From positions 1 to 59,687 of the forward strand of contig JAHJAU010000081.1 in NCBI GenBank assembly GCA_018813785.1: a DNA stretch of 59,687 nucleotides. The letters are read 5' to 3'. The notes beneath the pieces were generated by a model. The model saw nothing but the letters and a program-made list of their open reading frames with translations, was not told the DNA's origin and did not search any database. The stretch comes from Patescibacteria group bacterium. Its GTDB lineage: Bacteria > Patescibacteriota > Patescibacteriia > SG8-24. The position numbers and the translations under genes are program-made. This document shows positions 702-37,639 of this stretch, piece by piece. The number at the start of each line of letters is the position of its first letter. Within the stretch, counting starts at the first letter, position 1.

Positions 702-1268
702 ATGAGTAAGAGGCAGTATTTGATGGGAGCGGCGGTGCTGATCGTGCTGTCCGCGGGCATCACGGTGCTGGGGGTCATCGCCTATCGTCTGGCGAGAAGC
801 CCCTCGCAGTCGACGGCCGTGGTCGACAACGACGACGACGGCACAACGAGCGATCAGGTGCCGCCGGCGGCTGACGAGGTGGTGCCGGGTGAAACAGACG
901 ACGAGGCTCCGCCGGCCACCGCCAGCATCGATCAGGCGCCGAACGGAGGCAGCGACAGCCTCGCCACCCTTCCGCCGCCAGCCAAGCTGGTCGTGGATTA
1001 CACCGGCGGGGCAGTGACAGTGCGGCGGGATGGCAACCTGGAGCTGCGAGCCAAGAATGCGCCCTTCGGCTTCGGTGAACCGGCAGCGGCCAATCCCCAA
1101 GGAACGGCGCTGGCGAATGGCGACAAGCTGGTCGTCTTCTCCGCCCCCCGGGCGCTCGCCACCGACTCGACCGGCTGCAAGGCCACTCAGGTCGAGTACC
1201 GACTGCGCCCCAACGGCGACGTCGAAGTGGTGACGCGGGGTTGTACCCGCATCACCCAGTGGGAGTAG
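702..1268 (+). CDS. Hypothetical membrane-anchored protein encoded in a high-GC cassette
   Basis: 188 aa with a strong SD (AAGGAGG), its own promoter and terminator. Codons are overwhelmingly G/C-ending from about codon 8 onward. The protein has an N-terminal TM helix (AAVLIVLSAGITVLGVIAY), an acidic/Pro-rich linker, and a C-terminal domain of about 100 aa with 2 Cys. I recognise no family. Confidence 0.6.
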   Translation: MSKRQYLMGAAVLIVLSAGITVLGVIAYRLARSPSQSTAVVDNDDDGTTSDQVPPAADEVVPGETDDEAPPATASIDQAPNGGSDSLATLPPPAKLVVDYTGGAVTVRRDGNLELRAKNAPFGFGEPAAANPQGTALANGDKLVVFSAPRALATDSTGCKATQVEYRLRPNGDVEVVTRGCTRITQWE

Positions 1269-8159: not shown

Positions 8160-8633
8160 TTATTCTCCATTAATCAGATTCATTATTCTTTGTTGTAAGC
8201 TAAACATCTCAATTTCATCCTGGGTGGTAGTGTGATCATGACCCATCAAATGAAGTACTCCATGAACCAGCATAAGAGCAAATTCCTGCAATATTTCACA
8301 TTTCTTTTCGATTGCCTGTCGATGAATTTGTTCACTGGATATTACTATCTCCCCCAGCAAGGACGGACTGGATTCATCGGTAGCATCAATAAAAATACCA
8401 CTGCTGTCGTCAATATATGAAAAAGATAGAACATCTGTCGTGCTATCCACTCCGCGATATATTCGATTCAAACGCTGCATCTCTTGATCGGTCACAATTG
8501 AAATATCAACGTGAACTGCCTGATATCCAGCGGAGCTTTGATAAGCCAAATCAATTATTTTTTTAACGAAATTCGCCGTAACTCCCGACGGCAATTGTCC
8601 GGAAATATCTGCGCTGACCATATCAACCTTCAT
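8160..8633 (-). CDS. ybeY: rRNA maturation endoribonuclease YbeY
   Basis: HGVLHLMGHDH metal-binding motif and TDVLSF. The ORF is open to 8717, but that extension overlaps the upstream gene. Plausible starts are ATG 8633 or ATG 8621, the latter 1 nt after the upstream TGA at 8623-8625. Confidence 0.88.
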   Translation of the reverse strand: MKVDMVSADISGQLPSGVTANFVKKIIDLAYQSSAGYQAVHVDISIVTDQEMQRLNRIYRGVDSTTDVLSFSYIDDSSGIFIDATDESSPSLLGEIVISSEQIHRQAIEKKCEILQEFALMLVHGVLHLMGHDHTTTQDEIEMFSLQQRIMNLINGE

Positions 8634-9927
8634 CTGCTGCGCCTTCAGTCGACGAACCTTCTTCGATTTGATTAAAAGACGGAGAAGACGGCAGGACAGA
8701 TGTTGCCCCTTCAGCATCGCTCGGTTCGATTATCTTGGCTTCTCCAATAAATTCCAAACTATTGGCCATCATGGATAATGTAACGCGATAACGAATCTTT
8801 AATTCACTGGCCAAATCGTAAGTTAAACCGACCACCATTCCGTCGTTAGAGACAAAAACTGTTCGTCGATCTGGTGTAATAATTTGTTCGTAGCCCTTAC
8901 GATTAATCAAATTCTCAAAACGATCAACTTTGACCAAACCTTCTATCGGAGCTTTAGCAAACCAATCGGCTAATGATTCTTGTGGTGATTTTCGATAAAG
9001 CGTAACTTTAATATTCTCGCTGGTGGCTGAAGTAAATTGAACTGTTTGTTCAGCTGGAATATCTCGAACATTCCAGGACTTAGGTCGATACATCTGGATG
9101 CCATAATCCTCATTGCGATAAACAGTAATCCCTGGATTATCAATCAAGCGAGCGGGATCACGCTTAGCCGGATCAAACAAATTCAAAACTTCATTCAGGT
9201 CAACATAACTGTCGCCATCACTATTGGCGCTATTCGGGTCACTGCCAAAAATCTCATTCTCTTCAACATCAGTTAAACCATCGCTATCGGTATCGAGAGC
9301 TTGTTCCGGCGGTGGTGGTTCGCAATCCTGCGGACAGTTAGCAAACGTCTCGCCTCGATTTTCCTCACACTTATCATCACCACAAACTGGCGGTGGTGGT
9401 TCGCAATCTTTAGGACAAGACTCGAAAGTCTCGCCGGCCTCGCAAGAACGGTCGCCACAAACTGGCGGTGGTGGTTCGCAATCATCAGGACAAGAAAAAT
9501 GATTCTCTGATTTTTCACACTTATCATCACCACAAACTGGCGGTGGTGGTTCGCAATCTTTGGGACAAGACTCAAAAGTCTCTGGCATGCTACACGTGCC
9601 ATCACCACAAACCGCTTTTTGTTTAGAAAAAAACAGAACATAGGCAGCCGTGCCGCCAGCTAAAAGCAAAATAATTATCGCCAATAATACGATTAATACG
9701 CCTAATTTACCCTTCTTGCCCTCGGCTGTAATGTTCGGTTCGGACGATCGTCCTTCGGTGTTCGGCTGACCGGCCGACGACTCCGTTCTTCTGGTCGGTT
9801 TAAGTTTTGCTGGCGCACCATAAAACGCATCGGGGATAACATGGATCTCCGTGTCTTCCTTGCTTGGACCTGATACACCCGAAGGTTTATCCAGCCCTAA
9901 CCCTGATGGTTTTAGTTCATCAACCAT
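8623..9927 (-). CDS. Type II membrane protein with four tandem CGDxxC..CPxDCEPPPPV modules, TSP3-like Asp repeats and a C-terminal globular domain
   Basis: 434 aa. It has a disordered N-terminus and one TM helix (LGVLIVLLAIIILLLAGGTAAYVLFF). Four Cys modules of 25-27 aa follow, then DTDSDGLTDVEE / NSDGDSYVD calcium-binding-type repeats. Confidence 0.8.
   Translation of the reverse strand: MVDELKPSGLGLDKPSGVSGPSKEDTEIHVIPDAFYGAPAKLKPTRRTESSAGQPNTEGRSSEPNITAEGKKGKLGVLIVLLAIIILLLAGGTAAYVLFFSKQKAVCGDGTCSMPETFESCPKDCEPPPPVCGDDKCEKSENHFSCPDDCEPPPPVCGDRSCEAGETFESCPKDCEPPPPVCGDDKCEENRGETFANCPQDCEPPPPEQALDTDSDGLTDVEENEIFGSDPNSANSDGDSYVDLNEVLNLFDPAKRDPARLIDNPGITVYRNEDYGIQMYRPKSWNVRDIPAEQTVQFTSATSENIKVTLYRKSPQESLADWFAKAPIEGLVKVDRFENLINRKGYEQIITPDRRTVFVSNDGMVVGLTYDLASELKIRYRVTLSMMANSLEFIGEAKIIEPSDAEGATSVLPSSPSFNQIEEGSSTEGAADEG
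9290..9612 (-). repeat. In-frame tandem DNA repeat (4 units of 75-81 bp) inside CDS 8623-9927
   Basis: The 20-mer GGCGGTGGTGGTTCGCAATC occurs at 9308, 9389, 9464 and 9539 (plus-strand coordinates). It encodes the CEPPPP ends of the Cys modules. Confidence 0.9.
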
Positions 9928-9942
9928 AAATTCCAGCCAAGA

Positions 9943-10695
9943 TTATTGGGGTAGATTGAGCAACTTACCCTCGCCATTCGGATTATATCCGGCCTTAACT
10001 TCTTCGCCATCGATATAACCATCGTCATCCGTGTCAGGTTTAGTCGGATCGGTATTGTATAAAAACACCTCTTCCCGATCAGATAAACCATCGGAATCGG
10101 TGTCAGCACTCTGCGGATTAGTACCGCGTTGCCGCTCTTCCTCATCACTTAAACCATCATTGTCGGAATCAAGCGGTTGATTAGCTGGTTCCGGTTCAAT
10201 AACCGGCTCGGTTGGTGTAGGCGGACAATCCGCTGGACAATCAATAGTTGTTTCTGAATTGTCGCAAACACCATTGCCACACAAAACACTCGCCGCCAAC
10301 TGACAATCACTCGGACAAATTATTTCCTCTCCTGGTTCGCAAATGGTATTACCACAAATTGAATCGACTGGTGGTTCCGGTTCAGGTGGTGTTCCCTCGA
10401 CTGGAACAGTGACCTGATTATTGGTCGGAGCTTCATTGGTCAAATTCAATAACTCCGAATCAGCGCTTGTATCACGCAAATAAAAATACCAAACTCCACC
10501 CCCGATCAAAGCCACAACGACAAGAGCGATCGCGATGAACAACAATTTAGATGGACCACGCGAGGCGACTGAATTCGAGGATGATTGCTGATCGGTAGGA
10601 GCGGACACTCTGGTCGCCGAAGACGAACCGGCTGAATCCTTAGCTGGGTCAATTTCGGCAAAAATATCTTCTGGCTGATTTTGTTCGTCGAACAT
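9943..10695 (-). CDS. Type II membrane protein with Cys modules and thrombospondin type-3-like calcium-binding repeats
   Basis: 250 aa. It has a disordered N-terminus and a TM helix (LLFIAIALVVVALIGGGVWYF). CGNTICEPGEEIICPSDC and CGNGVCDNSETTIDCPADC modules follow, then DSDNDGLSDEEE, DTDSDGLSDREE and DTDDDGYIDGEE. Confidence 0.8.
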   Translation of the reverse strand: MFDEQNQPEDIFAEIDPAKDSAGSSSATRVSAPTDQQSSSNSVASRGPSKLLFIAIALVVVALIGGGVWYFYLRDTSADSELLNLTNEAPTNNQVTVPVEGTPPEPEPPVDSICGNTICEPGEEIICPSDCQLAASVLCGNGVCDNSETTIDCPADCPPTPTEPVIEPEPANQPLDSDNDGLSDEEERQRGTNPQSADTDSDGLSDREEVFLYNTDPTKPDTDDDGYIDGEEVKAGYNPNGEGKLLNLPQ

Positions 10696-10719
10696 ACAAC
10701 TTAAAAAAATAATATTATT

Positions 10720-11277
10720 TTATTCTCCTTCTGACTCTGGCGCTGATAAATAATGGCCAATAAACTCATGCTCCGAACCACTTTCTTCGCGTCCGCGAAA
10801 ACGTAAAAAAATAATTTTATCTTCTGGAACATCCAGAATCTCAATCTCGTGCGTAGTTGTCATTTCATCTTTTTTGATACTCCCGAGTTCATAATCAAGC
10901 GTTCGGCCATAATCAACGATCGAAGTCATGGGAATGGTTGTTGTCCAAGACAGAACAAATTTTCCTGCTCCACTTTCAACAAACTTAAACTCAGAAAATA
11001 TGTCGTAACTGACGCAATCAGAAAAACAAATTTTAACGCTTTCGTCTGGCGAACAGATCCCGTCTCCACATACACCCCTTTTCACCTGGATACCTTCATC
11101 TTTAACCCCTGAATTTAGACCTGAGTCTCTTTCAGTGGCACCAGTCGGACTTTTGGTTTGAGATATTGTTTTGTCCGAAAATAAATCACTTCTTCTTAAA
11201 ACAACAATAGCACTAATAACAACCAATAGAGCTGCAGCCAGTACTACTACAATAATGATTAAATTTTTATTGCTCAT
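10720..11277 (-). CDS. Type II membrane protein with one Cys module and an Fn3-like beta domain
   Basis: 185 aa. It has an N-terminal TM helix (LIIIVVVLAAALLVVISAIVVL), a CGDGICSPDESVKICFSDC module, then FVLSWTTTIPMTSIVDYG... typical of Fn3/PAP-N-like sandwiches. Confidence 0.75.
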   Translation of the reverse strand: MSNKNLIIIVVVLAAALLVVISAIVVLRRSDLFSDKTISQTKSPTGATERDSGLNSGVKDEGIQVKRGVCGDGICSPDESVKICFSDCVSYDIFSEFKFVESGAGKFVLSWTTTIPMTSIVDYGRTLDYELGSIKKDEMTTTHEIEILDVPEDKIIFLRFRGREESGSEHEFIGHYLSAPESEGE

Positions 11278-11310: not shown

Positions 11311-14300
11311 CTACTCTTCACCACACACTTTTTGGAAAATTGTACGCGCCAAAGTGTCGGCATTAATCGAACGACAAATATCAACAAATCTAGCAGATCT
11401 AGGCGTATCAAATTCATTTATCGGTTCGGGTAGGGCTGATTCCCACAAAGGTCTATGATTTGAGCATCCCCTATTACCACCCCTTGAAAGCACGAATAAC
11501 TCGACGTAGTCTTCGGCTGTATCACAACCGGGTAACGTGCAGTTCCTGGCCGCTTCAGCCACTATTTCAAGATTGACACTCGCTAAAGCGCTTTCTGGTA
11601 CAGGTACTAAACCATTACCAGCCGGAGGTGGTTCATCAGTCACTACCACAACATAAGGATGGGCGTTACGCCGCCAGGAAATACCATAGTCCCAGCCGTA
11701 ATCATTGTCTGGCCTCATCAAGGCATAGGCAGCGGCATAACTTGCCTCAACCCCCATATCATCTCTCCCGGGATCAAACTTACTTAATCTTGGACGGTCA
11801 CGATTCCAATCAATAAAAGTTTGTGGATCCTTATCACAAACCGGTCTGACTACATCATCATCCCACGCCCGCCAACAAAAAGAGTACATATTTCTTAGGG
11901 CAGTCTCAAACTCTGCAAAACTAACTAAATCCTGAAACGAGTGAGGTAGATATCGAGGACCTTGCCGAATATTCAATGTATTTAACTCCTTTTGTGAAAT
12001 AGTAACGAAACCGAATCTATGGTCACCTGTGCCAGCCGCGTTAACTTGTCGGGCTAAATCGCTCAAAGCATTTATAACGGAATCTATAACGTTATTCATT
12101 GTTCCAGTTACATCTATTACGAAAACCATGTCTACGCGATTGCGCAAATGTAGAGCGTCATCAGCTCTAGCATTACAATCATTATCAATGCCGTCGCAGC
12201 TGGTTTCCAAACCAGCTGGCACTACAATACCGGTATCAGGGATTAAATAGCGTGGATGAGCAGTGGCGTTATCCTTTACACAATCAAAATCATCTGGCAC
12301 ACCATCGTTGTCATCATCTGGATCGCATGAATCAGGCAGACGAGTTTCTTGAGTCTCATCAACAAGCCAGTGTTGCCGTTCTACACAAAATTCTCGCAAT
12401 TGAGGATCAAAAACCGTATCACATCTTTCTAGTGGTGCAGGGCCACTCCCAATAACGTAGGCTCTACAGGCAGGGCAATCGAGATTGTCCGAGCCGCCAA
12501 TTACAGCCAGCCCTGATTCTATTTCACATATCTCTGATTCTCTATCTGCACAATCTAAGACACAAGACGCATCAGAACAAATAGCGTAGCCAGTTTGTGC
12601 ACCAAAACTTTGGTCTTGTAGCCGAGTACTTACACACAGACGACTTGAATTGGGAGTATATAAAACCGGCTCGCATATTTCTGGTCCGGCTGGAATAGAT
12701 GCAGGTCCTTGGATATCACCATCACCGCAATATGGACCGGAGACCGTGCCAATTCGGCAGGCCGGGGTGCAATAAGTACACAGTCGACCATAGGTCGGCG
12801 TACAACGCGTGCCGTTACGCGCTCCGTCGTCACACAACTCACCACCCGCCCAATTAACAAAACCGTCACCACAAACATTGTTGCGACAGGTGTTGGTGCA
12901 AGTGTCGTTATTTTCGATGTTACCGTCATCGCACTCCTCGCCGGTTTCTCGCATACCATTGCCACAGCGCCCCGGCGCAGTACAAGCCCAAGCACTCCAC
13001 TGACAGGCAGTGGGGTCATCACGATCAGAGGCCGGATTATTCGCTCCACAAGATCGAGTAAACCGCTGATCGACCGTCGGGCAAAAGACACACAAACCAC
13101 CATCTTCGGCACAATCAGCATTAGTGGCACAAGCACGACCATTGGGTCGTCGAACGTCACCACTGGTACCGATGCAAGCACCGCGACTGGTTTGAATACC
13201 ACCGTCGCATTGTTCAGTTCCGTTTATAATACCGTCTCCACAACGCGGTGCCGGACCACGACAATCCCAGGAACAGCTATCAACGTTGACTCCTCTGACA
13301 GCTCCCCCGGCACACGCAACTCCAGAACCAGCCAAAATACCATTCAAATAATAACGACCATTGCTCGCTCCACAATCACAAACTTCACTTGGGTGTGGTA
13401 AACCATCCCCGCAACGGAAACCAAGAGTCTTACAATTGGTACTGCAATAGCCGTATCTTCCATTCAACGCACCATCATCGCACCTTTCCTCCCGACTACC
13501 CTGAATAACACCATCACCACAATAACCCACCTCACAAGTCGCGGGATCGGGATTAACCGGAATAAATTCACGACAGGCGCGCGGCCCTTCGGTCTGACAA
13601 ATTTCCTCGCGAGTTCCCTCAACATCTCGCAACACGCCTTCAATTTCGGCCGAAACGTTACAAGCACCAACTCGTCGCTGACCAACTTCACAAATTTCGG
13701 GATCAACATCTGACTCATTGAGTATGCCATTACCACACTCGGCTCCTTCACCAAGCGGCACACCAGTACACGAATCGATCCCCCGATAACCACTCAACCA
13801 AATCTTCGTATCGGCATAGTTGCAGGCACCACCACTCCACTTACAACCCCTGGCCAGACAACTCTCCGAGTCAACCGGATCCAAACAAGTTTCACCCCCG
13901 AACTGCCAACTGGCGGCCCGACCGGCATCATTTAAATATTCCAAATCAGCATTAAGCTGTACCCCGCCACTCAACATGGAATATTTATAGATATGAGAAT
14001 GATCGCCGCAACGGAATTCACGCTCAGTTGAATTCCAGCAGGTATCGGCCTCAAAACCGGCTTCAACCGGACAAGCGGCAATATTATTTAAAGGATCTTT
14101 AGGTAAATTAACCCTAAGCCCTGACCCAAGAACCGCATCCCAAGATGGCCAAATACTATAAGTTCGCGACCGCAAAAATGTCCCCTCGCGCAAGGCTGGC
14201 GGCGAAGCAACCTGATTAATCGTCCGCCTCATATTTTGCAAATCCGCCCAACGTCGAACATCATGTTTAAATTTCGACTCCGGCACATCACAGGTGCCTA

Positions 14301-17300
14301 AGGGGCAATCAGCATCAATCTTACAGATAATATTATCTTCGCTGTCTTCGAGATGTGCGGCTGAGCCATCGTTGAGGCGACAAATATAAGTGTCGGCTAG
14401 ATTAGCATTAAAATCTAAACGACTGAGAATTTGATTAAAGACTGAGACGGTCTCGGCAGACGCACCATCGCTATAAGACATGACATAAACATTGGTGAAT
14501 AGGTTTATGCCACTCTGAGCACCAGCGTTCACGTACACCGTCCGTCCATCACGTAAACCGTCGTAACCGGCGACCGATAAAGATGAAGGCGAACCACGGA
14601 AGCCACGATCAACATACCAGTCAGCAATACCGCTATGTGTTCGATTGGCAGCGATTCTTAGACCAAAAGCATCATCACGCCAGACACCGTCCCTGCTCCT
14701 GACTGGATCGAAAGTAAAAAGATACTCTCGCATGATTCCTGGTGCCGGATCAGTCAAGCGAACAATTGATCGACCGCTGTCAGCCGGAGCCGTACCAACG
14801 GGATCTTCAATATTAAGATATGGTAATAGTCCACCAGCATCACCGGCACGCACCCCATCACGACAGTAATAGAACTCGACATTAGTCCAACGATCCAAGA
14901 ACGGGTACCAGACCCGAGAGTTCGGCGCACAATGATGAATTGGTGCTGGACCCAAGCCACCACCGTCATTTTGTTCCCAAGGCAATGAAACTTCACCAGT
15001 TGCAGAACAAGCCCGCCACTCCGGCCAAGGGTTGTTACACAACATCACCACTACATTACTACGACCGGCATATCTGGCATCTAGATCACCTAGGGTGGAT
15101 TCGGTAATAGTAATAGCTGCCTCCACCACTGCCTTCCCATCCTGAGCAATATAATCTTCTGGCCTGTCTCCCCGACGGCTACCCCTGACCCTGACCCGAG
15201 CTTGATTTGGTGTCAAAGGAAAAATTTCTTCAGCTGGAATTTCATCTTCCACTACTATCGGAGAAACTGGACCATCCTCAAGATCCCCACCATCCGGCTG
15301 TTCAGTCCAAGACAAATTCCAGGCATAAATTCCAGGCATGCTAACGATAGGCATGTCACCATCACTATGTACCTCAGCGGTAAACGCGTGTTCATCTTCA
15401 ATAGAAGAAAACAAATCTGATTCCGGATCAACACTAACCCGACGCACGCGACAAATCTCATCTCTGGTACCAAAATGAGCGATATTCGACTGAATCGTTA
15501 CTCCATGAGTAGACTTGGCGCCTGGTAAAACACGAACACGAAGCCAGGCATCAGCCGGATAAGGCTCACTCGGCCAAAATTCGGCCTCAGTGGCGCTAGG
15601 TGTCACCACCTGACCATTAACTAAGCAAAAATCAGCTACTGCTGGCAATGGAATGGCCGGTGCACCAAAAACTGGGCTGATAATACGCTGAACAAAACCA
15701 ACGACGTGCTGCCAAAGCCTGGCTAGTAGTCCGCGCGGTTGACCGCCCACCTCGGCTATGGCTATCGGCCGGACAACTTCTACGCCTTCACCACAACCGT
15801 CAGCATTATAGTAACCAACCTTTAGGTTCTGTTTAACGGACACTGAATCCATTGGTTGATCGAAAAAGACGCTAATAATTCCATTACGGCAAATATCGTC
15901 CCGACCAGCGACTGGGTCATAGGACAAAACTCTAGGCTTGGCCACGCAACAACCAGATACAGCACAACCCAACGGTTCATCTGGCAGGGGACCAGGAAGT
16001 TCACCTAGCCGGATCGCATCAACGATAGCTGCGCAATGCGCGTCACCATCAACTGCCACTCCACAGGTACAAGCGAGCGTTACTCGTGAATTACCCTCTT
16101 GTCCGGCTGGCACTTCAGGATGATCAGCGGTTACTGTACTAGTAGCCAAGGCGGGATCGTCAGTATCGTTATCACGTGACATAACCACCTGATAAGTATC
16201 GGTAAATCCGTCAGGCCCCAACATTCGACCATCACAACGCGGATGCTCGGCTGGCGCATTCAGGACACCATCACCACAAAATGAAGGTGTGTCATGAAAA
16301 GCAGATGAACCTTCGCGCAGACAACGATCACTGCAACCGTCATTATTACTGGCATTGCCATCATCACAGGCTTCACCAAAGCCTGCCTCCACAACACCAT
16401 TACCACAACAATTCATTGGTGGTGGATCACCAGGAACTGGAGGAGGACAAGCACCAACCAAAGCACCTTCATACAAGCAGTTGGCACTACAACCATCTCC
16501 GCGATTAGTATTGCCATCATCACATTCTTCGCCTGGTTCTGTTAAACCATTACCACAAGAACTAACGCAAAGCTCACCGGCTGGTGTGGCTATTGTACAA
16601 AGCTGAACAGTGCCTTCATTCAAACAGTCTCGACTACAGCCATCACCATCGCGAGTATTGCCATCGTCACAGGCTTCGCCATCAGCCCGAATTCTATCAC
16701 CACAAGTCGAACGACCGGCGGTTGATCCGAGCAAGATACAGCCCCAGCCTTCGGGTCGACCGTCGCCATTATAATCCTGCCTAGGATCCATACAGCCACG
16801 TGGGAAGACCAAAGCCCCGCCAGCTAATGGATCGGGAAGTGCATCACAGTTTTCTCCGACATTTATAGCTCCGTTACCACAAGCAGGCGGCTCGGTTCCG
16901 CTGACTAAACAATTACTGCTGCAACCATCACCATCCAATACGTTGCCATCGTCACAATCTTCACCGCGCTCTGCTGGCAGACCATTACCACAGGCCGGTA
17001 CATTGGGTAATGATCCGGTCATTAGACAACGATCGGTACATCCGCGAGGCAAGGTCGAGTCAGTATCCACCGTGGTCGTATCATCAACACGTAACGGCCA
17101 ACCTGCGGCGCTGACAAAACCACGCAAAACTGGATTGGGATTAATACCCCACTCCCAATCATACTCATCGGCTACCAATTCCAAACCGTCCGGATCACAA
17201 GTATTCGGCCGACTACGAGCGGTTAAATTCAAACCCAACCGCTGACCAACATAGTAAAGTGTGGCGTAATTTGGTCGCAACTCAACCCGACCAATAGCAC

Positions 17301-20300
17301 AACCTTCCGCGTCTTCCACCGTTCGGAATGACCACTGATACCAACCAGCGGTATTAAGACCGGTTAAAGGCACTAAACTAATCGAGGTAATTCCAGTTTC
17401 ATCTCCGCCTTTCAAACGAACAACGTAATGCGTTAATGGTCGCAAACGACCGCGTGGAACAATCGTCACTCGCATCATGCCCCGAGCCGGGTCGGCTGGA
17501 ACAGCCGGAGCGTCGGCCACCACAGCAAATGGAATGAGGTTAAAAGGCGGATTGCAAGAAGGATTTCGACATTCAAAAAGCTGGACATTGCCCGGAGCGG
17601 TCAAAGATCCTTCGTTCATTGGAACATTAAATTGTGCGTAAATCAGGGCGTTCGTGCAGGCTTCTTCGCAACCATCAGCCGGAGAAACCTTGGTCACTGT
17701 CGGATCAGCAAAAGCCACTCTAACTAGTGATACACCGCGTAGTGGCAGCTCACCATCATCCGGTGTCAAAGCACAAAACAGTCGATCTGATTCACCTTCT
17801 GGGGTTTCACGCTCGCCACTGGCATAGTACACGCAGTGAGCCCGAGGATGAGCAGGTGGTCTTGGCGCTGGGCTGATATGACCACCATCAATTGACCAAT
17901 CAATTCGATAGCCACCACCAGCAACACACTCCAACTCCACACATCTACCGTCTGTTGGAACGGCTTCAAACACGGTGTTTGGTACTCCTTGATGCTCGAT
18001 CGTGGCTCGTCCAGGATTCACAAAAACACCAGCAATCTCGCACGGCGTTCGATCCTGTTTAGCTCTAAAAAACCAACTGTAATCACCGCCCGGACGACGA
18101 TCAAAATTCCCATCCAAATAACGACCATCCATGTCTACGATACCAAAACCCTCGCCGGGGTTTGATCTTAAGGTAACTCGATACCAATAACCTGGACGGA
18201 GCTGTCTGTTCCCCGGTAAATCGTCGGGGTCAGCCGGATCATCCGGCGGGTAAGCACCGGCTTGTGGTCGAAAAGCAATTACGGTTCGTCGACCAGCTTC
18301 ATCCGCTTCAACAGCGATATTTATGGTTGCTCGATCAATTGGAACCAGCTCTCCCCCTGAACAGTCTAATGAATCACCGTTGCCACATTCCTCAAATAAA
18401 ATGCTGGCTGGATCTCTTAAAGATTCAGGCAACATTTCAGTCGTGAAAGCGACAGCGACCTGCGCATCCAAACAGACGTTGGTCAGTCGATCAGCCGGTG
18501 TGGGACTCTGACGAACTGGATGATCGACACCCAAAACGCAACTTCGCCGCAAAACCCGTGGGTAATTCGGTAAAACATTTGTACTAAAAAGCCAGCCAAA
18601 GGCACTATTTCGTTCATCCTGACAAGGATCGTCCGGCGTATGACAAGACCCGTCTCGACAACAAGTTGTACCCTCAGCACAAGTATTATCGACATTGCAA
18701 TTTTGAACATTAAACGGAATGGGGTTCCTGGCCCAAACGTTTTCAGCTACAACGTGAACCGGCCCGGAAACTGGCCAAGTTGCCGGGTTCCCCCGATCAC
18801 CAGGAACAACTGCTCGCAAACTGGTACCACCCCACGCCGGATACAGACCAGAGGCCATTGAAACATAGTCTGGTCTAGGCAAAAGATCCGACATGACTCC
18901 ACGCAAATAAAACCGCAATGAATTTTCTGGTCGGGCTGGGTTAAAAGCCCCACCCATAGCTGCCACATTGCCAGGGCCTGTACCAAACCCCTCACCTTGA
19001 ACTGTTATGACCGTGCCCGGCGGACCAGAAACAGGTGAAATCGAACACATTCCCGGCGGCACCGCAGCATCGGTCACTTCAAAACCAACTCGATTACTGG
19101 GCTGACCGGAGACACTCGTTATAACTTGAACTTGATAATCACCCTCTTCAACAAACAGTTCACCCTCGTTTTCTTCGATAATTTCCTGAGTTAGTCCAGG
19201 AGTACGCGGCACTTTAACCACAATATAATTGTCGTGCCAATTGTCTGCACAAATCGGCTCAAGACCCAGGGCAATATCATCACCAACTTCTGGCAGGAAA
19301 TAAACCTGACCACGCCGATTGCCAAACCCCGATCCTAAAATAGTTACATATGACCCAACCGGACCGGTAGCCGGACGAATTTCTTCTATTCTGGGACCAC
19401 CGGCTGAAGAGGATAAGCGTAAAGTAAAATTAGCTGGATTTGACGGCCTGACCCCACCCACAACAACCCGCACCGGATAGATGCCTTCACGAAGAACCGT
19501 TGGAACAATCGCTGTAATTAAATTAGCTGCCCAAGTCATGCCACCTCGTCCAATATCTACACCATCCATTCTGACCAAACTATCGCCTATCGCCGCTCCA
19601 AAACCACTACCATGAATATTGAAAGCACTACCAGAGGATCCAACTGACGGTTCCAGATAACAAATACCCGGCAACACATCAGCGGTAACAGTAAAATCAT
19701 GAACTGGATCACCAAATTCGTCGTCAGTTCTGTCAGCTGGTCCGGCGGCAGTAATTAACATCAATGGACCAGAAACTGCTGCCGCTGGCACAGCCACGAT
19801 AACTTCGTTGTGTTGCCAAGCAGCTGGATCGCAGGCTTCAACTGTAACATCATCAGCCTCACCTTCTGCACCCAAGAATACTATCCGACCGGGACGACTG
19901 CCAAAAAACCTACCACTAATAGTAATGAGACTACCTGGTCCGGCATCAAGGGGTGTTACGTCAGTAATAATCGGACGATCCTCGCATCGACCGGTATCTG
20001 GGTTGCAATAACCAGACGCGCAATCTTCGTGGGTCGTGCAGGCGCTACCTGGACAGCCTCGACACTCACCACCACAATCTTCTCCTTCTTCGCCCTGATC
20101 TGCGTCTATTACGCCATTGCAACAATGAGCCGGATTGATATAAAACTTGCGACCAGTCATAGCACCGGACTGCGGTACTCCATCAGCAGCCACTGCAGTC
20201 AAAGTATGTGGGACACCTGTTTCCAAACCTCGAGCGTCGATATAAATATCGTCTTGAATTTCAAAAACCTCAAAAGGATCTACAGGAGAACTATTGAAGA

Positions 20301-21348
20301 CAGTAGCTTCACCAGGATATGGATCAAAAAACTCATCGACCAGATTAGCTGCTCCACCATTAAGTCTAAAACTGACTAAGGTTGGCAGAAAATCATCTCT
20401 GGCTGTAGCCCGGATCTCAATCTGCTCACTGCAATAGGCTGGATAAGACACCGGTGAACCGATGCTGACTGTAGGAGGTGTAATATCAACCTGATTACTG
20501 AAAGCCATGGCCCGATCACATAGATATCGATCAGCTTCCGGTGAAGAAATATCACCCAGAGTCGGCCAACAAATTAATCGTCGGCCGCGAGTATCTTGTA
20601 GACCATCATTTACAGAAACGCGATACCAATAATCATGTTCAAAATAAGTCGGATCTTCTTCTGGACTGGCGTTCGGTCTAAAAATTATCCGATTTGACTC
20701 AATAGCACGAGTGCCAACAACTTCAACATCGCAGTCCGCCTCATTAAACGGCCGCGGCTCATCACCTGAGAGTCTGGGATTACAGCGTGTAACCGCAAAA
20801 GAGGCCGGGCTGACAGAGCCGGGAAAAATATCGGCTGTGAATGCTACTTGAATGGCGTAATTCTTTGGCCAACCATTATTTCGTGGACCAGAACCAATCG
20901 GTGCCACGCCAGCCACACTAAAAACACTGCGACTGCCAGGTATTCCTCCGCCACCCGGGCCACCTGGTCCACCGGCACCCTCACCCAAAGTTCCGCGCTG
21001 AATTGCACCCAGTATAAAAGAGGCAATGGCGTAGGCCGACATAATAATCACCAATCCAATAACTCCATTGCGCATCCAGGCCTTGGCCTTATCTATCTGC
21101 TGACTATCGCCACCAGCAGTCATCCACAAAAAGCCCGCATATAATATAAGAAGAACAGCAACGATACCAAGAAGTCCCAGAAATGCATTTATTATTCGAC
21201 CGATAGTAATCCGAATATCGGTCGAGGTTAAACCTAGACTCTCCCCATACTCCAAACCCAAATCAACCTGAGCCAAAGCCGGCAGGGCAAATATTGCTAT
21301 TCCAAACAGCAATATGATCAGAAATGTAAATCGTTTAGTTCTTGGCAT
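11311..21348 (-). CDS. Giant (3,345 aa) multidomain surface protein
   Basis: Single uninterrupted 10,038-nt ORF. Reading N- to C-terminus: pilin-like 2-TM N-terminal module, Ig-like segments, IPT/TIG units, two blocks of Cys-rich repeats, then a C-terminal VWA domain. Motif series and coordinates are given in the findings. Opposite-strand and off-frame ORFs inside it are low-complexity artefacts. Confidence 0.9.
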
Positions 21349-21366
21349 TAAATTAATAACTATCTA

Positions 21367-23607
21367 TTACAATCCAATGGGACAGGAAAATGGATCGCTG
21401 CCAGTGGCATTACAACAAGAAGCATGGCCACCCATATCACAACGAATATATCGACTAGGATAAAAACAATTCTGGCGTGAATCCTTAATACGAGCGCCGA
21501 CAACTGGTTCGTACAGCGGAATTCCTTCGTCGTGCCCAGCTGCTATTTCATCTAAAGTGAAGCCCAAATCGTTGGCTGTCAAAAAATCACGATGTAAAAT
21601 ATTCATTCTGGTAACTCTCACATCACCAATCACAACCGGTCCATCCCCGACACCAATAAAAAAGGCGGGGGGTGGAAGTGGTGGCAATGTTCGGCATGGT
21701 TCGGCCGGATCAGTACAATCCGCGGTTCGATCTTCCTTCTCGAGTTCGCGCGAGCGCAGAGCTATAGTTGTTCTCGAATCAATGAACAGCTCATCATCAC
21801 CCGGAGCGGCTGTTTCATTATAAGCACCACTGCGCATAGAACCGATGCCCATAACCTTGCTCCAAGTTATAGTAATCGGAAGATTGACCGGCACATTTGA
21901 TGGTCCGTCCGGATGCAAATCGTCAGCGTCTGGTGGGGGGACCTCTGCTAATGGATCTATTTGCGTAATCACCGGTTCAGTTAAATCAATAGTCGAGCCT
22001 ACATGGTACAACCAGCGAACCGAATCACCGTCACCGACTCGAGTATTAAGTATGTAATCACTAACACGTGGACCTTCGGCAACACCATTACTGTTACCAT
22101 CCAATGAATTTCCGACCATGTCGAGCGGGCCGTTGGGAGCAGCTGCTTTGGGTGGATCAGTACTCAAAGTCGCTGCCAGCGCCCGAACCCGAATTTCAAT
22201 ATTTCTGGGTAAACAATAAACCGGGTCACCACAGGAGTTAACGCTCACTCCCTCGCACGGTATGCTCGAGATAAACTCGACTGCTCTATAGCGTGGCCCC
22301 ATATTTACCGCGCCAGGAATTGTCATGAACGATTCGCAAGTGTCACCGGGAATCCAACAGTCGCAATCCGCACCAGGCAAACAACGTCCTTCCACTAAAA
22401 TATTGGTCAGACCTCGATCTGTCCGACCACTGCTGGTTGTTGGATCCATCGGTTCATTGAAATAAATTTGAAGCAACTGATTTCGTGGCAATATTTCTCT
22501 TTCAAGGGCTGGATTTATCACTGCCTCTGGCTCAACCGACAAAATCTGAGGTGGGGTTAAGTCCAGGGTTGTACCCGTGGTAAATGGCCAATAATAACCG
22601 CCATCAGCGTTCATTGAATCAAAAGCGTTTTCGACTTCTGGTTCTCCTTCTTCCTCACCTGGAACCCAAACTCTGACGCCGTTGTCACCACCACGAATAG
22701 CTACACGATATGTAACATCAGCAGTGGAACTTCCTAAATAATCTGTTGGCAGAATAACCAACGTCTGAAGATCCTGTGGATCAAACTCAGCCGCGACCAT
22801 CGAAACACGTGCTGTGGGTGGTGCTATCAATCCAGCGTCTGGATAACGTGAATTGAACCGATCATCTGGAACGGATCCTTCTACTGCACCCAAAGATTCA
22901 TTTGGAATTACTTTAAAATTGTCAGTGTTTAATTGCAAAACTTCAGGAATGATATCATCAGCTGTATCGTAGGTTCCATTGTCTTCGTAATCCATGAAAA
23001 CGGTGGATAGCACGAACGGTCGTTTAAATGTAATCGAAATATTCGTGTTTCTCGGTACATCAGTCTGCCCAACTTCTGGATAATGATATTCGATTATTCC
23101 ATTGCCTAAAATATGAGAACTACCACCACGCAATGAAGACAAGGATGATGAAGACCCGCCTCTTCCACCTCCACCCAGTAATGAAGCTCCAGTAATAGCC
23201 TGAAAAATAAAAGCGGTGATGGCATAAGCGGCCATTATGATGGCTAAACCAATCACTACGTTTATCATTAATTTTTTGGCTTGATCAACTTTTGAAGAAT
23301 CGCCGCCAGCGGTCATGTATAAATAGCCGGCGTAAATAAACAGACTAACTGCCAACAACCCCAACAGACCCAAAAAAGCGTTGATAACCCTGGCAACTAT
23401 CGTCCTGATGTCAGTTGTTGTTAAACCTATCTCAGCGGCATACTGCAACCCAACATCAGATGTCGTTAGCTGCGCAAAAGCCGCTATTGGAATGATTAGT
23501 AAACAAAAAAAACATGCACTAAATAACAGCACCTTGATAGCACTGCGCTTGGTACATTTCTGGCGATCCTGTTCGGACCAAACTAATGTCTTAAGCCTCC
23601 TTAGCAT
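21367..23607 (-). CDS. 746-aa surface protein with a pilin-like 2-TM N-terminal module and Ig-like (Big_5-type) domains
   Basis: The N-terminal module is closely paralogous to that of the giant ORF ([57 protein letters not shown]). A Gly/Ser linker follows, then repeated P..G.TDVP.N..I.I.F segments. Confidence 0.85.
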   Translation of the reverse strand: MLRRLKTLVWSEQDRQKCTKRSAIKVLLFSACFFCLLIIPIAAFAQLTTSDVGLQYAAEIGLTTTDIRTIVARVINAFLGLLGLLAVSLFIYAGYLYMTAGGDSSKVDQAKKLMINVVIGLAIIMAAYAITAFIFQAITGASLLGGGGRGGSSSSLSSLRGGSSHILGNGIIEYHYPEVGQTDVPRNTNISITFKRPFVLSTVFMDYEDNGTYDTADDIIPEVLQLNTDNFKVIPNESLGAVEGSVPDDRFNSRYPDAGLIAPPTARVSMVAAEFDPQDLQTLVILPTDYLGSSTADVTYRVAIRGGDNGVRVWVPGEEEGEPEVENAFDSMNADGGYYWPFTTGTTLDLTPPQILSVEPEAVINPALEREILPRNQLLQIYFNEPMDPTTSSGRTDRGLTNILVEGRCLPGADCDCWIPGDTCESFMTIPGAVNMGPRYRAVEFISSIPCEGVSVNSCGDPVYCLPRNIEIRVRALAATLSTDPPKAAAPNGPLDMVGNSLDGNSNGVAEGPRVSDYILNTRVGDGDSVRWLYHVGSTIDLTEPVITQIDPLAEVPPPDADDLHPDGPSNVPVNLPITITWSKVMGIGSMRSGAYNETAAPGDDELFIDSRTTIALRSRELEKEDRTADCTDPAEPCRTLPPLPPPAFFIGVGDGPVVIGDVRVTRMNILHRDFLTANDLGFTLDEIAAGHDEGIPLYEPVVGARIKDSRQNCFYPSRYIRCDMGGHASCCNATGSDPFSCPIGL

Positions 23608-35780: not shown

Positions 35781-36695
35781 TCAACTAAGTAATTTTTGTA
35801 AAAGGGAATTGTATTCCTCCTCGGAAAAAAAATGTAATACTATTTTGCCTTTACCTTTACGATTCGTAACTGAAACCTTCGTGCCATAAGCACTGCGCAA
35901 ATTTTCTTCGGCTGCCAACATCTCAGAACTCTTTTTAAGTCTGGTTGAGGTTTTTTGTACGCTAGCTTCGGCCTCTCTAACAGTCACGCCGCCTGCTAAC
36001 ATCTTACGAAACATCTTTGCCTGAACTTTTGGTTCGGTAATAGCCAACAATGCTCGCGCATTACCAGCACTGACGACCCCAGTTGCTACGGCATCAAGCA
36101 TATCAGATGGTAAATCCAATAAACGCATGGTATTAGCCACCGTGGAGCGGGCTTTACCAACCTGTTTTGAGATGTTTTCCTGAGTTAAGCCAAATTCCTC
36201 TGTTAATCGCCGATAGGCTCGAGCTTCTTCTACGGGGTTTAAATCTTCACGCTGAATATTCTCAATTAATGCTAAAACAAATTTTTCAATATCCTTTTCT
36301 ACTGGTCGAATTATGGCTGGAACGGATTTCAGGCCTGCCAGTCGAGCTGCTCGTAAACGTCGCTCCCCTGCTATAACTTCGTAACCTCCATCCGGCCTAG
36401 GCGCAAGTGCTAGAGGCTGAAGAATTCCATGTTGGCGGATCGATTCAGTTAACTCCTCCATGCCCTGATGACCGAAAATTGTCCGAGGTTGACTGGGGTT
36501 AGTTTGAATCAAAGATAGATTGATTTCTGCTACACCTGACCCGGACTGTCGGACAGTCTCACTACGACTACTTCGAGTCATTAAACCACTCCCAGTTTGC
36601 GGTACATCGACTGTGGCGGTTTTAGCACCCGCCTGCGGAATCAAGGCACCCAAACCGCGCCCGAGTCCTGATTTTTTCTTAGCCATCATACTCAA
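35781..36695 (-). CDS. parB: Chromosome partitioning protein ParB/Spo0J
   Basis: GLGRGLGALIP, the ParB box IAGERRLRAA, and an HTH (LTQENISKQVGKARSTVANTMRLL). Confidence 0.93.
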   Translation of the reverse strand: MSMMAKKKSGLGRGLGALIPQAGAKTATVDVPQTGSGLMTRSSRSETVRQSGSGVAEINLSLIQTNPSQPRTIFGHQGMEELTESIRQHGILQPLALAPRPDGGYEVIAGERRLRAARLAGLKSVPAIIRPVEKDIEKFVLALIENIQREDLNPVEEARAYRRLTEEFGLTQENISKQVGKARSTVANTMRLLDLPSDMLDAVATGVVSAGNARALLAITEPKVQAKMFRKMLAGGVTVREAEASVQKTSTRLKKSSEMLAAEENLRSAYGTKVSVTNRKGKGKIVLHFFSEEEYNSLLQKLLS

Positions 36696-37462
36696 TACGA
36701 ATGCTCAAGATCTATTATTTCTTTGGTCAAACGCTCATATGCTTTGGCGCCCTTAGACCATGGATCGTACTCCATAATTGGCCGGCCAAAACTTGGTGCC
36801 TCGGCCAATCGCACATTTCGAGGAATAACCGAACGAAAAACACGATTGGGGAAATGAGTGTGTAATTCTTCTACTACGTCGTTAGCCAATCGATTTCGTC
36901 CATCATACATAGTTACCACCGCACCTAAAACTTCTAAATCCGGGTTTAAAACTTCTTTGACCATGCCAATCGTCCGTAACAGCTGACTCAAACCCTCTAA
37001 TGCATAATATTCAGCCTGTACTGGAATGATTAATTTATCTACGGCAGTTAGACCATTGATGGTCAACAAACCAAGTGACGGAGGACAATCTACCAAAATA
37101 TAATCATAATCATTCCTGACTTCCAGTAGTAGGTTGGCCAGACGGTGTTCACGTTGTTCCAAATCTTTCAGTTCGATTGCTGCCCCAGCCAGCGAAGGTG
37201 TCGAGGGGGCCAATTTCAATCCTTCGATCTGAGTTGAAACCGTAGCTTCTCGCAGTGTGCTTTCACCGATTAGTGCCTCATAGGTGCCGCACTCAATCTG
37301 ACTCGGATCCAGTCCTAACCCGGAAGTGGCATTTGATTGTGGATCCAGATCAACTAATAAAACAAACTTACCGTGGGCAGCCAAATAAGCACCCAGGTTG
37401 ATTGCTGTGGTGGTTTTACCCACCCCTCCCTTCTGATTAACTACGGCTAAGATATAAGCCAT
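36692..37462 (-). CDS. parA: Chromosome partitioning ATPase ParA/Soj
   Basis: MAYILAVVNQKGGVGKTTT deviant Walker A. I chose the start at 37462. The ORF-track extension to 37582 is Cys/Arg-rich and runs over the tRNA-Leu promoter and gene. There is a 4-nt ATGA overlap with parB. Confidence 0.9.
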   Translation of the reverse strand: MAYILAVVNQKGGVGKTTTAINLGAYLAAHGKFVLLVDLDPQSNATSGLGLDPSQIECGTYEALIGESTLREATVSTQIEGLKLAPSTPSLAGAAIELKDLEQREHRLANLLLEVRNDYDYILVDCPPSLGLLTINGLTAVDKLIIPVQAEYYALEGLSQLLRTIGMVKEVLNPDLEVLGAVVTMYDGRNRLANDVVEELHTHFPNRVFRSVIPRNVRLAEAPSFGRPIMEYDPWSKGAKAYERLTKEIIDLEHSY

Positions 37463-37494
37463 AACAGCATGTACTTTACAACATCGATCAACCT

Positions 37495-37523
37495 TTGACA
37501 ATACGATTTCTGAAGTATAGTAT
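37495..37523 (+). promoter_or_regulatory. Sigma-70-like promoter for tRNA-Leu
   Basis: TTGACA (37495-37500), 17-nt spacer, TAGTAT (37518-37523), about 30 nt upstream of the tRNA 5' end. Confidence 0.5.
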
Positions 37524-37552
37524 AAGCCAGTAACCACTGGTCTTTGGCTCCA

Positions 37553-37639
37553 GCCGCGGTGGCGGAACTGGCAGACGCACACGACTCAAAATCGTGCGGG
37601 AGTAATCCCATGAGGGTTCGATTCCCTCCCGCGGCACCA
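37553..37639 (+). tRNA. tRNA-Leu (anticodon CAA)
   Basis: 87 nt with a long variable arm. It has a GCCGCGG/CCGCGGC acceptor, CACGA-CTCAAAA-TCGTG anticodon arm, GAGGG-TTCGATT-CCCTC T arm, and encoded CCA. Confidence 0.92.

Follow-up and report, generated by a model that had tools for sequence, protein, structure and literature searches.

What a bacterium with a reduced genome gains from a single gene of 10 kb is the question raised by a stretch of 59,687 bp from an ultra-small bacterium of the Patescibacteria group (assembly GCA_018813785.1, contig JAHJAU010000081.1), which was analysed at its full length and is called the window below. The gene in question, here called the giant gene, is a minus-strand open reading frame (ORF) that an earlier note, made from the DNA sequence, had read as encoding a mosaic adhesin. 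The premise of a reduced genome was borne out, since the source is a Patescibacteria metagenome-assembled genome (MAG) and related complete chromosomes measure 0.93–1.08 Mb. We found that the ORF is a genuine, unbroken gene, that its product is a member of a core syntenic family and not an idiosyncratic mosaic, and that the stalk of this protein is conserved among relatives and its tip swapped. As judged from its architecture, the product is probably a Sec-exported, membrane-rooted, disulfide-rich acidic fibrillar adhesin acting with partners encoded in the same gene cassette.

Continuity and composition of the giant gene

The ORF begins with ATG and runs through 3,345 codons to its stop with zero internal stops; with the segment's own base composition, the chance of 3,345 stop-free codons is about 1e-74. 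Tandem Repeats Finder gave only one match in the gene, of 26 bp, and repeat-driven misassembly or collapse is therefore unlikely. An identical protein, from a Patescibacteria group MAG, is on record at NCBI as 'DUF4215 domain-containing protein' (accession in Table 1). In a sibling assembly, aa 1–1935 are matched at 1933 of 1935 positions and aa 2371–3345 at 974 of 975, both without gaps, which covers 87% of the ORF with no frameshifts or indels; aa 1936–2370 are supported by the present assembly and by homology only. Two homologues, 3,350 and 3,358 aa long, can be aligned with it from end to end (100% of the length) and share 43–46% identity with it. The uninterrupted ORF claimed in the earlier note, free of stops and frameshifts, is thus confirmed by a second assembly and by full-length homologues. 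That it is nevertheless an artefact or a pseudogene, i.e. an assembly chimera or several genes fused through sequencing error, is extremely improbable: the source is a short-read metagenome assembly and sibling assemblies split the gene over short contigs, but the stop statistics, the lack of DNA repeats, the codon usage resembling that of the host genome, the indel-free second assembly and the collinear full-length homologues in dozens of species all speak against it.

The giant gene has a GC content of about 50% versus about 43% in its flanks. Its GC content at the third codon position (GC3, 0.37) equals that of the neighbouring genes, the excess being located at the first and second positions (GC1 and GC2). 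The deduced protein contains 11% G, 8.6% A, 8.2% D, 7.5% P, 4.5% C (151 Cys) and 0.8% K, and the raised GC content is explained by this composition, because a protein rich in Gly, Ala, Pro, Arg and Asp and poor in Lys raises GC1 and GC2. A foreign origin, as the difference in GC content might suggest, was rejected, since GC3 is like that of the neighbours and the gene is vertically syntenic.

Signal peptide and VirB2-like hairpin

In the hydropathy profile, strong hydrophobicity is confined to three N-terminal segments (aa 4–32, 47–81 and 94–118). The first belongs to a predicted signal peptide, and the residues flanking its likely cleavage site, A26 and Q27, are invariant across 16 diverse homologues. 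The region of the other two scores 41.6–47.3 bits against T4SS_pilin (PF18895; cut-off 26.6), covering positions 7–71 of the 71 in the profile, and matches TrbC/VirB2 and NF045849 (a pilin of a Mycoplasma integrative and conjugative element) below the cut-offs of those models. The pilin-like anchor recognized in the earlier note was therefore recovered, at 41.6 bits, and it is of the VirB2 type, i.e. that of type IV secretion system (T4SS) pilins, not a type IV pilin. In topology the protein agrees with PF18895, with a signal peptide and then two hydrophobic helices that have a short charged loop between them. However, members of PF18895 are small hairpin-only proteins encoded with T4SS machinery, whereas here some 3,200 aa follow helix 2, and no VirB4, VirB6 or VirD4 was found in the window or within about 10 kb around the gene in 80 loci. 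Because of these two differences the giant protein was not filed as a pilin proper.

The inter-helix loop carries K, K and R. Since positively charged loops face the cytoplasm (the positive-inside rule), the chain after helix 2 is predicted to be extracellular. The hairpin is the best-conserved segment of the family (aa 51–100, mean identity 0.60), and a stand-alone 123-aa pilin at one related locus (L003) aligns with it and stops exactly where the linker of the giant protein starts.

The stalk

Along aa 140–2900, Big_5, TIG and DUF4215 were all detected above their cut-offs, as in the stalk of a fibrillar adhesin. In the library profile search proposed earlier, T4SS_pilin and TIGR02232 also pass their curated cut-offs, and nearly all the domain types named in the note are borne out by profiles. 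Big_5 (PF13205) scores 65.8 bits against a cut-off of 23.6, with its best match at aa 1215–1343 and further partial matches, in agreement with the SbsA-type immunoglobulin-like (Ig-like) segments described in the note. TIG (PF01833) scores 59–67 bits (cut-off 20.9) in three stretches, and PDB sequence matches of this region land on the equivalent domain of CGTase. All four TIG units had been placed correctly; three are above the Pfam threshold, and the fourth is recognized by motif and family conservation only. The DUF4215-type repeats, likewise predicted in two blocks at the right positions, score 79.8 bits with DUF4215 (cut-off 27, 6 stretches) and 152.7 bits with TIGR02232 (cut-off 20.8, 7 stretches). 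The CG[ND]G repeat starts number 13, located at aa 1453–1691 and aa 2538–2874, with about 5 and about 7 copies in the two blocks.

A Cys knot precedes the TIG units. Its residues C409, C425, C429, C432, C437, C443, C448 and C455 are invariant across the alignment of 16 homologues, and a profile search with aa 406–457 found no family at E ≤ 1. In the whole protein, which is acidic and Lys-poor, dozens of Cys are invariant across 16 homologues sharing 30–51% identity with it.

Of the roughly 900 aa that had been left unassigned, part still has no family match, but part proved to be a split Big_5 domain, present in most family members, and part a recurrent module. A profile built from the core of this module (aa 2216–2456) and eight homologues matched 1,561 representative clusters at E ≤ 0.001, 1,247 of them at E ≤ 1e-30; in the top matches it is almost always the N-terminal domain just after the signal peptide, in proteins of 400–1,850 aa. 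Going by these profile matches, the module is a sizeable unannotated domain family. It had no Pfam match at E ≤ 1, and the only matches in a PDB profile search were spurious ones to SidK (E about 0.6). Structure prediction for the middle region, which the note had advised, was run with AlphaFold2 (AF2) on the module and gave a low-confidence model (predicted local distance difference test score, pLDDT, 46) with 0 Foldseek matches at E ≤ 1e-3. This model and the one of the tip described below are both of low confidence because their alignments were shallow. A GspG-like pseudopilin head, considered for the module from its pattern K-A-K-I-x-R-D...Y-P...D-P-x-N, was rejected, having no Pfam, PDB or fold support.

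The C-terminal tip

The earlier note had placed a von Willebrand factor A (VWA) domain at the C-terminus, with DVTGT as a variant of the metal ion-dependent adhesion site (MIDAS). In the giant protein itself Pfam VWA (PF00092) reaches 18.2 bits against a cut-off of 23.8, over profile positions 1–48 only, and the domain has a 39-aa insertion relative to its homologues. The nearest C-terminal homologues pass the cut-off (P0009, 25.1 bits; P0010, 26.0 bits), P0009 sharing 31% identity over 91% of the C-terminal query. An AF2 model from a four-sequence alignment has pLDDT 49 and a predicted template modelling score of 0.56; its core gave 122 Foldseek matches in the PDB at E ≤ 1e-3, with TM-scores of up to 0.64 on the target, and the top matches listed are almost all VWA domains (integrin I and I-like domains, the pilus-tip adhesin SpaC, ITIH1, CMG2 and others). 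A VWA domain at the C-terminus is thus supported by homologues, fold search and motif, at a level below the curated threshold for the protein's own sequence.

The MIDAS-like motif was located at aa 3079–3083 (nt 12100–12114), with T-D-E at aa 3237–3239. DVTGT corresponds to DISGS and DDSGS (DxSxS) in P0009 and P0010. Among the tips of the family, 58 of 63 distinct sequences retain D-x-[S/T]-x-[S/T], Thr variants being recurrent, and 53 of 66 retain [S/T]-D-[G/E] at the beta-4 strand. The middle Thr of the MIDAS could not be placed with confidence in the giant protein; DVTGT retains the hydroxyls, and T-D-E is at beta-4. Since the metal-site residues are kept across tips, purifying selection appears to act on this site, with DVTGT as a conservative variant within the family. 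As to the Asp-rich metal-binding motifs noted just before the VWA domain, MopE and TSP3 motifs pass the threshold in relatives but remain below it in the giant protein, MopE scoring 20.1 bits against a cut-off of 27.

VWA-type tips were detected with an iterated hidden Markov model in about 40 of 109 full-length relatives and in 26 of 65 loci from GTDB genomes. The remaining tips fall into several unrelated classes, in which Pfam recognizes only MopE/TSP3 motifs and a weak CarboxypepD_reg. By eye only, in a comparison of the C-termini of P0001, P0017 and P0021, several of these tips and the ends of module-first proteins of about 900 aa share the pattern W..P..D.D..L ... D.DD..G.GPE ... Y.F.V..Y ... 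YW.VF, which hints at a second recurrent tip domain.

The family and its pattern of variation

A full-length search returned at least 245 proteins at E ≤ 1e-10, and the best 120 were characterized; nearly all of these have 3,000–4,100 aa and the same Pfam set as the giant protein. More than 100 full-length relatives (3,000–4,300 aa) are found in Ca. Uhrbacteria, Magasanikiibacteriota and Falkowbacteria, and their names in public records, which place them in Patescibacteria or Ca. Uhrbacteria, are generic only. In GTDB species genomes at least 559 stretches were confirmed by a scan, some of which may be other hairpin or DUF4215 proteins. The best 77 loci among them belong to the same three groups and to 'Patescibacteria group' records, with complete chromosomes (0.93 and 1.08 Mb) among them. 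At 50 of the 60 contig-internal loci the gene is one ORF of 2,900 aa or more (median 3,361 aa, maximum 4,304 aa). The family medians are 1.7% Lys and 4.9% Cys.

The giant protein is collinear with 109 full-length relatives up to about aa 2900. The mean identity to it is 0.3–0.5 in the stalk overall and 0.35–0.51 in the Cys knot with the first TIG unit, the DUF4215 blocks and the module, whereas it drops to 0.04–0.17 in the last 450 aa or so, where occupancy is 33–66%.

Many of the GTDB loci with a fully syntenic cassette (L005, L007, L010, L012 and about 30 others) carry the title 'uncultured Gammaproteobacteria bacterium' (TPA_asm), and one has 'Candidatus Kapaibacterium sp.' in its place; in all likelihood these taxonomic labels are mistaken.

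A conserved cassette between yqeY and ybeY

Essentially every locus with enough flanking sequence shares one gene order. Upstream are the genes for signal peptidase, histidyl-tRNA synthetase (HisRS), in some cases S21, and YqeY. The cassette follows, consisting of a gene for a hairpin protein (typically 600–850 aa), an optional gene for a hairpin-only pilin of 123–146 aa, the giant gene and two or three genes for small membrane proteins. Downstream are the genes for YbeY, diacylglycerol kinase (DAGK), FtsA and FtsZ (ybeY-dagK-ftsA-ftsZ). The features of the giant protein and of the cassette in the window are listed in Table 1.

Table 1. Features of the giant protein, from N- to C-terminus, and of the other cassette genes in the window
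Feature	Position (nt)	Strand	Evidence
Complete giant ORF, 3,345 aa + stop (MBU0625772.1)	11311..21348	-	ORF scan, stop statistics, sibling assembly
Predicted Sec-type signal peptide, aa 1-26, likely cleavage between ALA and QV	21271..21348	-	Hydropathy and invariant columns
VirB2-like two-helix hairpin (T4SS_pilin, PF18895), aa 27-118; helices about 47-81 and 94-118	20995..21270	-	Profile, hydropathy
Gly/Pro-rich linker, aa 119-140	20929..20994	-	Sequence; end point of L003 pilin
N-proximal Ig-like region, aa 141-405; weak Big_5 and Big_7	20134..20928	-	E 0.007 and 0.026, below cut-off
Cys knot, aa 406-457	19978..20133	-	Conservation
Four IPT/TIG units, aa 458-880	18709..19977	-	Three above Pfam threshold; fourth by motif and family conservation
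Cys-rich linker and Big_5 (SbsA-type) Ig-like domains, aa 881-1445	17014..18708	-	Profile
DUF4215/TIGR02232 Cys-rich acidic repeat block 1, aa 1446-1716	16201..17013	-	Profile and motif
First part of the formerly unassigned region, aa 1717-2097: split Big_5 domain, then about 250 aa without family match	15058..16200	-	Profile
Conserved unannotated module, aa 2098-2456 (core aa 2216-2456)	13981..15057	-	Profile of homologues
DUF4215/TIGR02232 repeat block 2, aa 2531-2896	12661..13758	-	Profile and motif
Start of variable tip, aa 2897-3068: Cys-rich segment with TSP3-type motif and MopE-type motif (CDGIDNDCN)	12145..12660	-	Sub-threshold profile
C-terminal VWA-like domain, aa 3069-3345	11314..12144	-	Homologues, fold search, motif
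Upstream cassette gene, 746 aa, VirB2-like hairpin and Big_5 (NCBI 'pilin', MBU0625773.1)	21367..23607	-	Profile
Downstream cassette gene 1, 185 aa, N-terminal transmembrane helix and CGDGxC...C motif	10720..11277	-	
Downstream cassette gene 2, 250 aa, transmembrane helix, two CGNxxC...CPxDC motifs, TSP3_bac calcium-binding repeats	9943..10695	-	
Downstream cassette gene 3, 434 aa, transmembrane helix, four CGDxxC...CPxDCEPPPP repeats, TSP3 repeats, C-terminal domain	8623..9927	-	

The window contains two hairpin genes only, the giant gene and the 746-aa gene, and thus no short major-pilin gene. Homology between the two proteins is confined to the hairpin (56% identity), none being found between them beyond it. 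The hairpins of the giant protein, its mid-size neighbour and the stand-alone pilin, which has 123 aa and lies in the cassette array at L003, L024 and L055, are 36–55% identical. The hairpins of the giant and mid-size proteins share 49.5% identity on average within a genome and 41.4% across genomes. The within-genome excess was seen in 54 of 67 genomes (Wilcoxon p = 1.3e-9), which are phylogenetically non-independent and in which a shared amino-acid bias may contribute. As the duplication predates the clade and pairs from one genome are nevertheless more alike, co-evolution or gene conversion of the hairpins is suggested.

The three proteins encoded downstream (8623–11277), each predicted to cross the membrane once, carry in their ectodomains a four-Cys mini-repeat, CG[DN]xxC-x(5-8)-CPxDC, in 1–4 copies per protein right after the transmembrane helix, often followed by EPPPP; no family was assigned to this mini-repeat. 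The Lys content of the presumably exported proteins of the cassette is low (giant 0.8%, 746-aa protein 1.7%, 250-aa protein 2.0%), that of cytoplasmic neighbours being 5–14%. The listed YbeY ORF (8160..8717) and the 3' end of the 434-aa gene have 95 nt in common (8623–8717); since orthologues have 140–190 aa, its start is probably further downstream. A scan of the cassette for promoters and terminators was uninformative, as the counts (22 and 14) were at or below those expected from shuffled sequences (24.7 and 15.9).

A probable membrane-rooted fibrillar adhesin and its alternatives

The adhesin reading of the earlier note fits this architecture. In the model that we favour, the giant protein would be exported by Sec and its signal peptide removed between ALA and QV. 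The VirB2-like hairpin would then root it in the cytoplasmic membrane, with the positive loop in the cytoplasm and everything past helix 2 outside. The Gly-rich linker would connect to a conserved stalk some 2,800 aa long, built of Big_5 domains, four IPT/TIG units, two DUF4215 blocks and the unannotated module, which many disulfides and calcium sites may stiffen. With about 30 tandem domains of about 4 nm each, such a fibre might, as a rough estimate, measure around 100 nm. This stalk would present a lineage-variable tip, here a VWA domain with D-x-T-x-T...D that could bind a ligand on another cell or a matrix via a metal. The 746-aa hairpin protein and the three Cys/TSP3 membrane proteins may cooperate with it as one conserved surface apparatus. 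The candidate adhesive domain lies distal to the anchor, and it is the homologues, the fold search and the motif that point to VWA where the protein's own score is sub-threshold. Pili-like appendages have been reported to attach ultrasmall groundwater cells, likely to be CPR (candidate phyla radiation) or DPANN by their size, to hosts (PMC7906910), and adhesins and a VirB2-like pilin array have been described as essential for epibiotic growth of the cultivated Ca. Southlakia epibionticum (PMC10633639, PMC12857230).

Several observations weigh against an adhesin: i) the VWA score of the giant protein (18.2 versus 23.8 bits) and the pLDDT of its structural model (49) are low, ii) threonines replace the MIDAS serines, iii) a VWA tip occurs in only about 40% of the members and the other tips have no known binding fold, iv) the fixed, clade-wide core site beside ftsA/ftsZ looks more like that of a housekeeping envelope component than of an accessory, host-specific adhesin, and v) the hairpin is conserved beyond the needs of a passive membrane anchor.

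The last of these bears on the possibility that the giant protein is a minor or tip subunit of a T4SS pilus, in which the hairpin would be a genuine pilin polymerized by a T4SS with the mid-size and, where present, the short pilins. The hairpin scores above the PF18895 cut-off, its closest counterparts being conjugation pilins (TrbC and the Mbov_0395 family, for example), its conservation (0.60) exceeds what an anchor needs, a homologous stand-alone pilin is encoded in the same array at the three loci named above, and the giant hairpin co-evolves with its neighbour. However, the latter signal could equally reflect gene conversion of adjacent paralogues, the cassette of the window lacks a short major-pilin gene, and the T4SS genes sought in the window and within about 10 kb of the gene in 80 loci are absent. 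Nor do we know of a precedent for a C-terminal extension of 3,200 aa on a pilin, which counts further against such a subunit. In CPR, VirB2 genes are typically arrayed in tandem, such an array being essential in Southlakia, and VirB4 was present in 2,417 of 3,035 CPR assemblies, with no PrgB-type adhesin detected (PMC12102498, PMC10633639, PMC12857230). On balance we regard a pilus subunit as unlikely, if by no means negligible. A bolder form of this idea, which is conceivable but doubtful, is that the cassette specifies a previously unrecognized surface organelle of Uhrbacteria, Magasanikiibacteriota and Falkowbacteria, i.e. a heteromeric fibre or pilus of VirB2 hairpins bearing ectodomains of about 0, 630 and 3,200 aa, in which the giant protein would be the host-recognition subunit and its tip would set the partner. 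If true, the adhesin missing from the Patescibacteria T4SS would have been found, and with it the first conjugative-type pilin to serve as display scaffold for a giant adhesin.

The fixed position beside ybeY-dagK-ftsA-ftsZ in all three groups would also suit a structural envelope component, such as a constitutive coat or scaffold that is S-layer-like or tied to envelope growth or division. Big_5 is the Ig domain of the S-layer-type protein SbsA, the five cassette proteins are, as predicted from their sequences, all membrane-anchored, Cys-rich, acidic and calcium-binding, and periodic surface layers have been described on ultrasmall groundwater cells (PMC7906910). A non-repetitive chain of 3,345 aa, a swapped distal domain and a MIDAS-like site, however, are typical of binding and not of lattice-forming proteins, profile searches found no S-layer anchoring or lattice domain, and where genomes are small and seldom rearranged, synteny alone need not mean a functional tie to division. 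A structural role is thus distinctly improbable in our estimation.

The layout of a conserved N-terminal part, a variable C-terminal region of about 450 aa and a small ORF directly downstream matches that of a polymorphic toxin or contact-dependent effector, whose stalk would deliver a toxic C-terminus and whose immunity protein would be the small downstream gene product. But a VWA-like domain and not a toxin fold forms the tip in this protein and in about 40% of its relatives, a Pfam profile search found no toxin family in this tip or the alternative ones, and the downstream proteins, with transmembrane helices and extracellular Cys/TSP3 repeats, do not resemble cytoplasmic immunity proteins. 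Because the same main downstream gene cluster occurs at 19 loci with VWA tips and 26 with non-VWA tips, there is no covariation of tip and downstream gene beyond phylogeny. The toxin/immunity layout, refuted only weakly by these results, is a very remote prospect, and a fibrillar adhesin remains the reading we prefer.

Other features of the window

A GC island (65–70% versus about 43% in the genome) is located at 700–1420. Its ORF (702..1268, plus strand) adjoins a tRNA-Asp gene at 1469–1546 and appears to encode a 188-aa protein with an N-terminal transmembrane helix, followed by a GC-rich hairpin and a T-run. No Pfam, Rfam or plasmid match was found for the island, and its minus strand folds with z = -5.5 (20 shuffles only). 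As three sibling MAGs have a hypothetical protein annotated for it, the island is not a chimera; its features suggest that it was acquired recently, next to a tRNA gene, from a donor of high GC content.

The 1,181-aa ORF at 39364–42909 (minus strand) contains a signal peptide, about 17 copies of a unit of about 45 aa ('YAYFGT..PG.VVKINLS.F.R...LTL..GE') and a C-terminal part of about 400 aa. It matched no Pfam family at E ≤ 0.001 and probably represents another large protein of the cell surface, one whose repeats resemble those of a beta-propeller. The parB and parA genes (35781–37582, minus strand) are separated from the cassette by about 15 kb. The GC skew of the window locates no origin; if the origin is near parB/parA, the cassette would lie close to it, as has been reported of T4SS clusters in Patescibacteria (PMC12102498).

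Comparison with known systems

A full-text literature search, which was not exhaustive, turned up no account of the giant family, of the cassette or of fusions between VirB2 and a giant protein. Public databases already contain the sequence and many relatives, which are generically named there, and the family is so far undescribed. The molecules with which Patescibacteria recognize and hold their hosts have been identified only in a few cultivated Saccharibacteria, and it is this gap that the family addresses: it is a clade-wide candidate for holding other cells, on which about 1% of a genome of about 1 Mb is spent for one fibre. As the distal domain alone is exchanged between lineages, a role in host range becomes a testable hypothesis. 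The family also flags for annotation a domain family lacking in Pfam (about 1,560 representative clusters) and the CGDGxC...CPxDC mini-repeat.

The nearest relatives of the anchor within the phylum are the arrays of VirB2-like pilins in Patescibacteria T4SS, e.g. in Ca. Southlakia epibionticum, which likewise combine a PF18895 signal peptide and hairpin with tandem, divergent paralogues (PMC10633639, PMC12102498). The known pilins, however, are small proteins whose genes lie within or close to the virB4 cluster, whereas here the hairpins are fused to ectodomains of about 630 and 3,200 aa and the array lies at the yqeY/ybeY-ftsAZ locus, with no T4SS gene in the window. The census of Patescibacteria T4SS lists pilin arrays but no adhesin (PMC12102498). 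In monoderm conjugative T4SS the part of the associated adhesin is taken by PrgB-type proteins, to which the giant protein has no detectable sequence or domain similarity; PrgB homologues are reported to be absent from Patescibacteria (PMC12102498). The Myxococcus-type TIGR02232/DUF4215 proteins share the repeat CGNG..E.CDDGN..DGCS..C with the two blocks described above, but the repeat has no established function and is one stalk element among several in the giant protein.

With respect to the tip, parallels are found in Gram-positive sortase pili, whose VWA-tipped adhesins include RrgA and GBS104. In another of these adhesins, SpaC of Lactobacillus rhamnosus (PDB 6m3y), a MIDAS-type VWA domain is carried at the distal end of an Ig-like stalk, as predicted for the giant protein. 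SpaC-type adhesins, however, have about 900 aa, are LPXTG-sorted and are joined covalently to separate pilins, while the giant protein is a single chain of 3,345 aa with an N-terminal hairpin and no sortase signal. With respect to size, the giant fibrillar and RTX adhesins, such as SiiE (PMC6272769) and the 7,651-aa Mobiluncus adhesin (PMC10619420), are also the largest proteins of their proteomes, with an Ig-like stalk, calcium motifs and a presumed gap-spanning role. They differ in having many near-identical tandem repeats and anchoring by a type I secretion system or LPXTG, in contrast to a non-repetitive, extremely Cys-rich mosaic with an N-terminal anchor. By analogy, then, the giant protein seems to be most like the VWA-tipped pilus adhesins and the giant fibrillar adhesins, and to differ from both in being a non-repetitive single chain with an N-terminal anchor of the VirB2 type.

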